Virus genome (UHGV): UHGV-0293321
From: a virus
DNA: 16,182 nt
Strand: one strand, 5' to 3'
The notes beneath the pieces are model-generated. The model saw only the letters and a program-made list of their open reading frames with translations. It was not told the DNA's origin and made no database searches. Position 1 is the stretch's first letter. Every line of letters begins with the position of its first letter. Made by a program: the position numbers and the translations under genes. Shown one piece after another: positions 276 to 1,795 of this stretch.

Positions 276-460
276 ACGCCACAATTCAAACGATACCAGA
301 GCTTCTTATCCAGACACGAGGCAATCAGACCGAAGTGGCAAGGATGCTTTCCTGCGCAAGAGGAACAGTGCTCAAGTACAACCGAGGCAGCAAAGGCGAG
401 CGTCACGTAATAGTTAACGGCGTCCTGATGGTCAAACAGGGCAAGAGGGGAAGACGATGA
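272..460 (+). CDS. ninH: NinH-like small DNA-binding protein (62 aa)
   Basis: ATG at 272. Blocks TIPxxL, GNQTEVAR, RGTVxKY and AIVNxVLMV match lambda NinH as recalled. Sits between rusA and Q as in nin regions. Start overlaps the rusA stop and its stop overlaps the Q start. Confidence 0.7.
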   Translation: MNATIQTIPELLIQTRGNQTEVARMLSCARGTVLKYNRGSKGERHVIVNGVLMVKQGKRGRR

Positions 461-945
461 GCATAAGAGAACTAAACCTCACCAAAGAACAGCACGATTG
501 GCTGAATGGCTGGCTTGAACTGTGGGGCGCATGGGTTTATTCAGGCCGCCTGGAAAAGCGCATGAGCAGCGTAATAGCGAAGTTCATGGAGAGCGTAGAG
601 CCGGGAAGAGTTATGACAAGGCCAATGTGTAATGATGATGATGGAATGTTGATTTCTCAGGTCGTCGATTCCGTCATGTACATTGACAAGAAAGCCTTTG
701 GCATCCTCCTCAGCTACTACGCTCATGGATCTTCCAAGCATGCCATTGCATCTTACTATCATCGTGTCGCAAGACCTCGCAAGATGTTATGCCGGGGCGG
801 CGGGCGTATTCAAAAACCATCGCTCGCAACCTGTCGCCGGGAAGTTGACGAAATCCTCAATGCTTCGTTGTTTATGATTTACCCGGTTCTGGATAGTGCG
901 TTTAAAAACCGGAAACGTGTAGAGAAAATTAAACATGTAGCATAG
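457..945 (+). CDS. Q: Late-gene antiterminator Q, QuuD/Q21-type (162 aa), not lambda-type Q
   Basis: Motifs WGAW, RPxCxDDDxMxI and LLxxYY align with the DLP12 QuuD-type Q family as recalled. Lies immediately upstream of a TTGACA promoter-like site and a hairpin plus T-tract, followed by lysis genes. Confidence 0.7.
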   Translation: MSIRELNLTKEQHDWLNGWLELWGAWVYSGRLEKRMSSVIAKFMESVEPGRVMTRPMCNDDDGMLISQVVDSVMYIDKKAFGILLSYYAHGSSKHAIASYYHRVARPRKMLCRGGGRIQKPSLATCRREVDEILNASLFMIYPVLDSAFKNRKRVEKIKHVA

Positions 946-951
946 AACGTG

Positions 952-982
952 TTGACATCATTGAGCAAATGAGCAACACTAT
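952..982 (+). promoter_or_regulatory. Candidate late promoter pR' (with putative Q-utilisation region)
   Basis: Consensus -35 TTGACA at 952-957, 7 nt after the Q stop. Only weak -10 candidates (AACACT, CACTAT) at 17-19 bp spacing. Position relative to Q and tR' matches lambdoid late promoter layout. Transcription start not determinable from sequence. Confidence 0.3.
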
Positions 983-990
983 TCGCATAA

Positions 991-1035
991 GCTGCCGTTA
1001 GTGACTCTTAAGTTGCAACGGTGGCTTTTTTGTTT
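991..1035 (+). terminator. tR'-like intrinsic terminator downstream of pR'
   Basis: GCTGCCGTT (991-999) pairs with AACGGTGGC (1017-1025), a 9 bp stem with two G-U pairs, followed by TTTTTTGTTT (1026-1035). The GCATAACAGGTAAGAGCATTGA block just downstream resembles the sequence after lambda tR' as recalled. Confidence 0.45.
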
Positions 1036-1316
1036 GCATAACAGGTAAGAGCATTGAACCCGCAGACCTCGCGGAATTGGTGAAAGGTGCCGCTCAGTGC
1101 TCTTATCGTTGTGGTGAATGCACAGGCTGATGTGTAAGGGCAAGAATCTTTCGCTGGATTCGGTGTGGCCACGTAGCCCGCTGTAGGCAGTTGCAGCAAA
1201 CCGGAGATCAGCACCGGTCGCCACAATCCAAACTGAGCCGTAGCCACTGGCTATCCTGAATTCATCAGTGATAGTTACGCTGCGGCCTTCTACACATGAT
1301 CTTCGTGAAAGCGGGT

Positions 1317-1351
1317 GGCAGGAGGTCGCGCTAACAACCTCCTGCCGTTTT
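1317..1351 (+). terminator. Strong GC-rich hairpin with short T-run (terminator-like or RNA processing structure) in the Q-S leader
   Basis: Perfect 10 bp inverted repeat GGCAGGAGGT (1317-1326) / ACCTCCTGCC (1337-1346) with a 10 nt loop, followed by GTTTT. I recall the same block upstream of lambda S. Confidence 0.45.
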
Positions 1352-1451
1352 GCCCGTGCATATCGGTCACGAACAAATCTGATTACTAAACACAGTAGCC
1401 TGGATTTGTTCTATCAGTAATCGACCTTATTCCTAATTAAATAGAGCAAAT

Positions 1452-1465
1452 CCCCTTATTGGGGG
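1452..1465 (+). promoter_or_regulatory. sdi-like stem-loop controlling choice between the two S start codons
   Basis: CCCC (1452-1455) TTATT GGGGG (1461-1465) hairpin immediately 5' of the ATG-AAG-ATG dual start of S, as in the lambda S translational control region. Confidence 0.5.
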
Positions 1466-1471
1466 TAAGAC

Positions 1472-1795
1472 ATGAAGATGCCAGAAAAACATGACCTGTT
1501 AGCCGCCATTCTCGCGGCAAAGGAACAAGGCATCGGGGCAATCCTTGCGTTTGCAATGGCGTACCTTCGCGGCAGATATAATGGCGGTGCGTTTACAAAA
1601 ACAGTAATCGACGCAACGATGTGCGCCATTATCGCCTGGTTCATTCGTGACCTTCTCGACTTCGCCGGACTAAGTAGCAATCTCGCTTATATAACGAGCG
1701 TGTTCATCGGCTACATCGGTACTGACTCGATAGGTTCGCTTATCAAACGCTTCGCTGCTAAAAAAGCCGGAGTAGAAGATGGTGGAAATCAATAA
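1472..1795 (+). CDS. S: Class I holin/antiholin S, lambda-type (107/105 aa dual-start)
   Basis: Translation [39 protein letters not shown]... is essentially identical to lambda S as recalled (one difference near the C-terminus, GGNQ vs GRNQ). Met1-Lys2-Met3 dual start at 1472 and 1478. Confidence 0.95.

Follow-up and report, generated by a model that had tools for sequence, protein, structure and literature searches.

A candidate structured RNA leader directly upstream of the S holin gene in lambda and related phages

Analysis of the virus genome UHGV-0293321 (one stretch of 16,182 nucleotides, hereafter the window) revealed that the untranslated leader of about 170 bases directly 5′ of the S holin gene, at 1301–1471, is conserved among lambdoid phages, that its helices covary, that it carries the signature of plus-strand RNA, and that as a module it is tied to the starts of two unrelated holins. 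This part of the window is 100% identical to lambda 45015–45185. A first-pass annotation of the window had placed the same block in lambda, which our comparison confirmed, and the lambda record J02459 has no annotation under the equivalent region. Judged from sequence, it is about evenly probable that 1301–1471 serves the lysis-gene mRNA as a structured 5′ leader acting in cis, which fixes the context in which the holin start folds and may also toggle it.

The lambda sequence itself and its sdi element are already known; sdi controls initiation at both start codons of S, and through it the holin:antiholin ratio (PMC3359269). Our analysis points to a much larger conserved RNA fold in which sdi is just the final element. 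For this larger fold, for a third repeat copy within it and for its tie to two holin families, we found no Rfam family, no annotation in the records examined and no description in the literature searched, which did not include older subscription papers. A search of Rfam at permissive thresholds returned nothing relevant, the sole hit being Ms_IGR-4 (17.3 bits against a threshold of 55) at 1235–1288, outside the module. Rfam Lambda_thermo matches the leader in neither sequence nor structure. A tRNA scan found no tRNA, and a promoter and terminator scan of the window region called no site.

A fold shared by divergent leader types

Upon a sensitive BLAST search, the block was found 5′ of the holin gene in 188 phage records, including forms that are 72–79% identical (P22, epsilon34, ES18, HK620 and others). 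Further copies came from GTDB genomes by way of the S protein and, through two DNA patterns, from IMG/VR. Since GGATTTGTTC and the S start were fixed in the first of these patterns, the bases concerned are invariant by construction in the set it retrieved. The second pattern left both free; its gap range left out the lambda type and yielded divergent types. Our statements on invariance rest on the BLAST-derived relatives and this second pattern. After removal of control-DNA artefacts, 108 distinct leaders were aligned with MAFFT. Identity between leader types is 64–91%, and between the window and the other types 65–76%. Within leaders that are 65–76% identical, GGATTTGTT never varies, including in loci retrieved with a pattern that did not fix it.

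An unguided RNAalifold run on 15 type representatives gave a helix 1302–1308/1367–1373 enclosing a hairpin (hairpin 1), then a helix 1402–1411/1444–1453, then the sdi stem. When 100 distinct model-aligned sequences were placed on this consensus fold, 98.1% of cells were paired and 10 pairs showed double changes; the covariation was 0.191, against 0.123 in shuffles (0/500) and at most 0.075 with slid partners. The counts based on the MAFFT alignment agree in direction. A covariance model of the 15 types found a single hit in the 16-kb window with both strands searched, namely the leader module itself, and no hit among S-homologue loci with unrelated leaders. Folding of 1300–1480 as RNA gave −65.2 kcal/mol, against −42.1 ± 3.9 in shuffles (z = −6.0, 0/200). 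With homologues that share a fold and compensatory changes, the leader is a conserved RNA structure and a candidate Rfam-type family.

The strand can be read from the imperfect pairs. On the plus strand G.U exceeds A.C by 159:3 in the outer stem of hairpin 1 (1311–1316/1352–1357) and by 107:1 in the helix that we call A′:A2 (1402–1414/1441–1453). This excess indicates plus-strand RNA, and is not expected of DNA palindromes, protein sites or minus-strand RNA. Together with the compensatory changes in the hairpin and its outer extension, it bears out the earlier proposal of an RNA-level feature on the late transcript.

Three inverted repeats had been proposed in the leader, and a repeat search recovered all of them where they had been placed, each 100% complementary: 1317–1326/1337–1346 (repeat I5, 10 bp, loop of 10 nt), GAACAAATC at 1371–1379 with GATTTGTTC at 1403–1411 (I8, 9 bp), and GATTACT at 1381–1387 with AGTAATC at 1416–1422 (I16, 7 bp), interleaved with I8. 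Our search also found that TTCGTGA at 1302–1308 perfectly complements TCACGAA at 1367–1373 (I15), and that ATAGAGCAAATCC at 1441–1453, a third copy missed by the first-pass annotation, complements GGATTTGTTCTAT at 1402–1414 over 13 nt at 92% (I2). In 2000 dinucleotide-preserving shuffles of 1301–1471, a perfect stem of at least 10 bp (loop 3–40) had P = 0.0035, no shuffle contained two stems of 9 bp or more (0/2000), and a single 7-bp stem was present in 23%. This indicates that the 10-bp hairpin and the 9-bp pair stand above chance and that GATTACT/AGTAATC alone is at chance level.

A separate observation concerns the minus strand. In P22 (L004 479–504, minus strand), AAAAGAAAACCCAGA..GCTGGG lies immediately left of CTTCGTGA, and the scan calls an intrinsic terminator there (a hairpin and UUUUCUUUU). 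Equivalent minus-strand sites were seen in HK620-type and some lambda-type leaders, and the window is without one. No minus-strand promoter was found.

Helices of the 5′ and 3′ domains

The 5′ domain is, as modelled, a long imperfect hairpin of about 25 bp, in which the helix E:E′ (1302–1308/1367–1373) closes a two-tier hairpin. The outer stem of hairpin 1 is 97% paired, with C-G replaced by U-A in 34 sequences and G-C by A-U in 16, accompanied by 19 G.U intermediates. The inner stem (1317–1326/1337–1346) is paired in 81% of cells across the 108 relatives, with double changes at 6 pairs; its loop is 10 nt, or 6 nt given one extra pair. In two leaders (L076 and L116) the whole inner stem is swapped (GGGAUACU/AGUAUCCC) around a nearly unchanged loop (GCGCAAAC for GCGCUAAC).

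The loop at 1327–1336, CGCGCTAACA, occurs reverse-complemented (TGTTAGCGCA, TTGTTGGCGCA, TGTTGACGCA) in several lambda-, P22- and HK620-type backgrounds (L015, L284, L006 of HK620, L041, L217, L210, L112, L146, L176, L186 and L215), which implies repeated inversion between the stem arms. The arms AGGAGGU (1320–1326) and ACCUCCU (1337–1343) correspond to a consensus Shine-Dalgarno sequence paired to an anti-Shine-Dalgarno-like one; AGGAGG is lost in most relatives (AAGAGG, ATGAGG).

In the 3′ domain, one arm, A′, has two conserved partners. The core of A′ is invariant, and the arm is also invariant in the 50+ loci retrieved with the pattern that left it free, bar one terminal C-to-A variant. 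Its helix with A2 is 96.7% paired over 13 pairs and shows double changes at three of them (U-A to A-U in 19, A-U to G-C in 2, U-A to G.U in 15); the covariation is 0.143, against 0.084 in shuffles (0/500). Its helix with A (1371–1379/1403–1411) is 94% paired and has no double changes, because the shared arm A′ never varies; 1378:1404 is C.A in 39/108. RNAalifold picks A′:A2 (1402–1411/1444–1453) and not A:A′. The two helices share 1403–1411 and are mutually exclusive, both are conserved, and E′ overlaps A by 3 nt. The first pair of the first-pass annotation is kept as a conserved competing alternative, and the best-supported partner of GATTTGTTC is 1441–1453.

The second pair, GATTACT/AGTAATC, fared worse. 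Its 71% pairing reflects lambda-type rows only, its covariation (0.060) is below that of shuffles (0.076), and it is absent from P22, HK620 and other leader types. Most unique variants in its arms break a pair and are not compensated; the lambda-type variants U1421C, U1418C and U1418A each leave a mismatch without a compensating change in the left arm. A pseudoknot would require the 4 nt at 1412–1415 to cross a 9-bp stem, and a loop this short looks insufficient by general pseudoknot geometry. Exclusive pairings do exist in this leader, as had been proposed; they are A:A′ and A′:A2, and neither the pseudoknot nor the two interleaved helices is supported. The covariation check which had been called for across lambdoid leaders thus comes out in favour of the hairpin and its outer extension and against 1381–1387/1416–1422.

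The remaining elements vary more between types. The small apical hairpin at 1383–1398 has an invariant UAC...GUA core, with GUUAC/GUAAC in the HK620 type, and is 79% paired, a count lowered by the MAFFT register. The sdi stem changes from CCCC/GGGG to CCUCAC/GUGAGG in P22 types. The segment CAAA (1374–1377) is near-invariant; it pairs in the alternative conformer but not in the consensus fold. In nine leader types, the ensembles constrained to A′:A2 and to A:A′ differ by 0–4.4 kcal/mol, and the predicted accessibility of the Shine-Dalgarno sequence is at least as high in the A′:A2 state in 9/9 (mean 0.33 vs 0.22).

Other pairings were considered and left out of the model. The lower stem 1365–1368/1423–1426 of the minimum free energy (MFE) fold was rejected, being absent in P22 types and with changes that are mostly uncompensated. 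Window 1299–1307 ATCTTCGTG complements 1471–1479 CATGAAGAT, covering the S Met1 codon, and single-sequence folds use this pairing to close the entire leader and bury Met1; it was excluded as weaker, not kept in the P22 type and absent with the class II holin described below. An apparent covariation of 1299:1378 (A-U 51, G-C 36, G.U 18) is confounded, G1299 lying in an upstream hairpin in those types. Window 1425–1433 CCUUAUUCC is a near copy of the sdi 5′ arm and can pair with the Shine-Dalgarno region 1459–1470 GGGGGUAAG; the window MFE uses this pairing when A2 is free. A CCUUAUUCC-like segment is present in lambda-, HK620- and L039-type leaders (UUCCUAAU) and not in the P22 type.

Modularity and surroundings of the leader

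The block is present in 1110 of 5426 complete E. coli genomes (~20%). Nothing is annotated under the match in 11 of 12 sampled E. coli rows, and the remaining row has a 'hypothetical protein'. In BTP1 and Oslo, and likewise in every one of the 80 IMG/VR loci retrieved through their holin, a lambda-type leader of ~95% identity extends to the start codon of an unrelated class II holin of 67 aa. This class II holin brings a dual start of its own (MYRM) together with an sdi-like CCCC...GGGG stem. Between HK620 and the window, S is 99% identical at the DNA level and the leader 72%. This indicates that leader and S have separate histories and that the leader is not merely hitch-hiking with S.

Many BLAST matches begin at window 1301, and the arm at 1302–1308 is, by these sequence boundaries, also the module's 5′ limit in many mosaic phages. 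Taken as a whole, the leader is a mosaic: 1020–1221 is common only to HK629/JEP4-like phages, 1222–1475 matches lambda at 97%, and 1301–1475 is shared by a much larger set.

Table 1. Positions of the leader elements and neighbouring features (window coordinates unless a locus is named)
Feature	Position	Strand	Basis or remark
Whole leader module	1295–1481	+	Covariance model (15 leader types), end-to-end match; cmsearch 175.8 bits, E=5e-40
Closing helix E:E′, 5′ arm UUCGUGA	1302–1308	+	RNAalifold consensus; 99.3% of cells paired; G-C to U.G in 2 sequences
Hairpin 1 outer stem, 5′ arm GCGGGU	1311–1316	+	Partner 1352–1357
Hairpin 1 inner stem-loop GGCAGGAGGU / ACCUCCUGCC, loop CGCGCUAACA	1317–1346	+	Repeat I5; −18.7 kcal/mol, z=−5.3
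GUUUU 3′ bulge between inner and outer stems	1347–1351	+	In the lambda type doubles as a short U tract
Hairpin 1 outer stem, 3′ arm GCCCGU	1352–1357	+	Partner 1311–1316
Closing helix E:E′, 3′ arm UCACGAA	1367–1373	+	Repeat I15, RNAalifold; shares 3 nt with start of GAACAAATC arm
Arm A GAACAAAUC	1371–1379	+	Repeat I8; alternative partner of A′; used in single-sequence MFE
Left arm GATTACT of second pair proposed earlier	1381–1387	+	Not a supported helix arm
Small apical hairpin UUACU ... AGUAG, between A and A′	1383–1398	+	Present in MFE
Shared arm A′ GGAUUUGUUCUAU, core GGAUUUGUU invariant	1402–1414	+	BLAST-derived relatives and free-pattern loci
Right arm AGTAATC of second pair proposed earlier	1416–1422	+	Not a supported helix arm
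Arm A2 AUAGAGCAAAUCC	1441–1453	+	Repeat I2; best-supported A′ partner; last two C's also in sdi stem base
sdi stem-loop CCCC UUAUU GGGGG, at S ribosome-binding site	1452–1465	+	Compensatory changes
S holin/antiholin gene, dual start (Met1-Lys2-Met3)	1472–1795	+	phrog_126 holin/anti-holin, E=1e-40; lambda S annotation concurs
tR′-like terminator of late promoter leader	995–1034	+	Context only, outside module; hairpin then UUUUUUGUU, −10.1 kcal/mol
Leader–class II holin junction loci	L230 (BTP1) 698–884; L229 (Oslo) 769–958; L231–L310		Holin MYRMDKIREW...

The window corresponds to a lambdoid phage's late region. Its open reading frame (ORF) 457–945 encodes a Q21-type antiterminator (phrog_943, E=4e-90), and ORFs 1472–1795, 1779–2255 and 2252–2719 match lambda S, R and Rz in order and position. 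Gene 59 of Sf6 (a Q21-like Q), with annotated pR′, qut and tR′, aligns to window 446–1036, and a hairpin with a U run is present where the first-pass annotation had seen a tR′-like terminator. The folded block sits inside the ~440-nt leader that runs from tR′ to S.

The same annotation had seen no credible ORF in those ~440 nt, and our analysis agrees. ORF 1268–1420 (50 aa), the sole frame spanning this part, matches phrog_22751 (E=3e-29), but it was rejected as protein-coding on its substitution pattern, stops and frameshifts. Substitutions by codon position are 16/12/16, with 27 nonsynonymous and 2 stop changes vs 15 synonymous; the frame has frameshifts in 4 rows and a TGA in HK629-type phages. 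Stops and frameshifts in viable phages, with no codon-position bias, indicate that the region is non-coding. The family phrog_22751 was probably built from spurious ORF calls over the conserved leader.

Window 1037–1221 occupies the slot of tRNA-Asn and tRNA-Thr in Sf6, BTP1 and Oslo, and is shared only with the HK629/JEP4-like phages. It contains no tRNA and gives no PHROG hit, and it has a 12-bp inverted repeat (1046–1057/1094–1105). Upon comparison, the idea that it is a degenerate copy of the Sf6 tRNA genes was rejected.

Some assemblies bearing the names of unrelated taxa (Bacillota, Pseudomonas, Flavobacterium, Streptomyces-like and others; GTDB contigs, L011–L048 and others) carry lambda S at 98–100% identity. 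In eight of them (L018, L020, L027, L030, L031, L044, L052 and L061) a T-rich adapter-like sequence is fused at lambda ~45042. This looks like contamination with sequencing control DNA.

Possible roles and comparison with known systems

If 1301–1471 works as a cis-acting leader of the lysis-gene mRNA, the A′:A2 helix would compete with sdi for the base C1452–C1453, and it would govern the openness of the Shine-Dalgarno and Met1 region, and hence how initiation is divided between holin and antiholin. The leader may also shield the holin start from variable upstream sequence in mosaic phages. Effects on translation, on mRNA stability and on any switching are what we infer; the literature searched yielded no experiment on how the leader affects expression of the gene behind it.

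The leader may also be bistable, with A:A′ as a competing conformer of similar predicted energy. The near-invariant CAAA, paired only in the alternative state, is a hint that both states matter. E:E′ takes the first three bases of arm A and could already form while A′ is still untranscribed; the consensus state would then be favoured co-transcriptionally. That the leader is a true bistable RNA device tuning the lysis clock is unlikely, though it deserves some weight. In state I of such a device, E:E′ formed co-transcriptionally and A′:A2 would leave the sdi base opened. State II, after rearrangement, would have the A:A′ hairpin and full sdi, and in lambda the Shine-Dalgarno and Met1 would be sequestered. 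The balance of the two states would set the antiholin:holin ratio or the rate of holin translation, and polymerase speed (Q-modified or not), temperature, processing or a trans factor could shift it. If true, this would be a portable 'lysis-timing leader' common to unrelated dual-start holins.

Several findings weigh against a role of the leader at the holin start. The leaders of S homologues at 81–83% amino-acid identity are short and unrelated, with nothing retained but an sdi-like stem, which indicates that the module is dispensable for this holin family. The whole leader is no more conserved than the fourfold-degenerate sites of S, so only the invariant islands argue for selection; as a neutral-rate test this comparison is uninformative, because leader and S differ in history. 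In experimental evolution, Sf6, which carries the leader, reached faster lysis with 13 coding changes in the holin, and the passages searched in that report mention no change in the leader (PMC5630979). The inner stem of hairpin 1 has more A.C (85) than G.U (15), because of the hypervariable pair 1321:1342. This pair is canonical in only 27 of the 108 relatives and mismatched in the other 81; over all 108 it reads A.C 36, U.C 23, G-C 20, G.A 14, A.A 6, A-U 4, U-A 3 and U.U 2. Both 1321 and 1342 are hypervariable, while the remainder of the lambda-type leader is almost invariant, and the 'perfect' hairpin of lambda and the window is an exception among relatives. The covariance-model alignment leans to the structure of the model. 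Moreover, the relatives are close and mosaic, the independent events are few (perhaps 5–8 leader types), and such relatedness inflates covariation in a way that shuffles do not correct.

Other explanations were weighed against the cis-acting leader. It is quite unlikely that hairpin 1 is a back-up intrinsic terminator, which together with GUUUU would stop non-Q-modified polymerase past tR′ and silence the lethal holin in lysogens, Q-modified polymerase reading through. The site does lie between the constitutive late promoter and a lethal gene, and a stable GC-rich stem (−18.7 kcal/mol) is followed by GUUUUG; tandem terminators in the lambda late leader were reportedly described by Luk and Szybalski in 1983. 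But the tail GUUUUGCC has four U's, which fails the scan criterion, and no terminator was called, a weak result since the same scan misses lambda's own tR′. The hairpin and U tract are not jointly conserved in relatives: other leader types have UGAUCU, UGAUUU, UGAAAU, CAGAUC or UAAUGG in its place and retain both the hairpin and, past the tail, the outer stem, and the conserved role of these 5–6 nt is that of a bulge. This indicates that termination is not the shared function. The stem is mismatched in its middle in most relatives, and the conserved 1360–1455 would be left unexplained.

Just as unlikely is a leader with no function of its own, namely a recently shared, recombining linker between Q/pR′ modules and lysis cassettes, whose palindromes are kept or reshaped by template-switch mutation at quasi-palindromes. 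Inter-type leader identity does not exceed that at S fourfold sites, distant S homologues are without the leader, and both the reverse-complemented loop in several backgrounds and the hypervariable mid-stem pair are typical of palindrome mutation. DNA-level processes, however, are not expected to give the excess of G.U over A.C, and the linker fits poorly with compensatory changes in helices whose arms are 26–60 nt apart and with invariant islands of 9–13 nt inside leaders 65–76% identical.

A slimmer chance is given to a processing site for RNase III or another enzyme, combined with a 5′ stabiliser. Here the ~25-bp 5′ domain (1298–1379) would be cleaved, splitting the lysis mRNA from the promoter-proximal leader or upstream tRNAs, and the structured 5′ end would slow decay. 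The architecture agrees with this, with a lower stem, an asymmetric internal loop and bulge, and a 10-bp upper stem, and the BTP1 lytic operon signal has been reported to start right after two tRNA genes, i.e. at the leader (PMC7067206). RNase III sites in the lambda late transcript are the subject of a 1988 paper, cited as reference 49 in PMC7547250; these sites may fall in the 6S region, which the window does not share, and cleavage is not reliably predictable from sequence.

The least likely rival, which we regard as very improbable, is a set of DNA sites bound by a phage or host protein, as had also been suggested: GARCAAATCC occurs three times in 83 bp, twice directly and once inverted, and has only chance-level single-mismatch hits elsewhere in the window, but the strand-specific G.U pattern disfavours it, variation of the copies is nearly all A to G opposite U, with RNA pairing preserved, the invariant copy is the shared inverted one, as expected of an arm with two RNA partners, the flanking extension of A′:A2 covaries, and comparison by eye gave no match to a known operator or IHF-type consensus. 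The copies cluster only in the leader, and a dispersed DNA motif was likewise rejected.

Lambda S is the textbook holin, and control of its dual start by sdi is a classic of translational regulation. The fold described here is a module before two unrelated dual-start holins and is not in Rfam. If it affects holin translation or mRNA life, it would be an unrecognised determinant of lysis timing, a key trait for phage fitness, and compensatory mutations in lambda 45116–45128 and 45155–45167 would provide a ready-made test bed. If it has no effect, it would be a case of mosaic phage leaders mimicking functional RNA.

Among known systems, intrinsic terminators such as lambda tR′ resemble the leader in having a GC-rich hairpin and U's within a late-promoter leader; they differ in that the U tract here is short and not conserved, and that the sequence beyond it pairs back into a covarying outer stem. 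RNase III hairpins (T7 R1.1-type; lambda N leader and sib) share with it the ~25-bp imperfect helix, the asymmetric internal loop and the long polycistronic phage transcript; such sites are not assignable from sequence. Bistable leaders (attenuators, riboswitch expression platforms, lambda cIII and Rfam Lambda_thermo) are like it in the invariant arm 1402–1411 with two exclusive conserved partners of similar predicted energy near a ribosome-binding site. They differ in that switching in the holin leader would have to be supposed and no Rfam match was obtained; we know of no ligand, leader peptide, temperature effect or other trigger for it. Another related system is sdi of lambda S itself, which is contiguous with the leader on the same transcript, A′:A2 ending at 1453 inside the sdi base. 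Both are RNA structures 5′ of a dual-start holin, and both are kept by compensatory change in P22-type relatives. However, sdi is a single small stem-loop at the ribosome-binding site, and the leader adds about 150 nt of conserved structure upstream of it.

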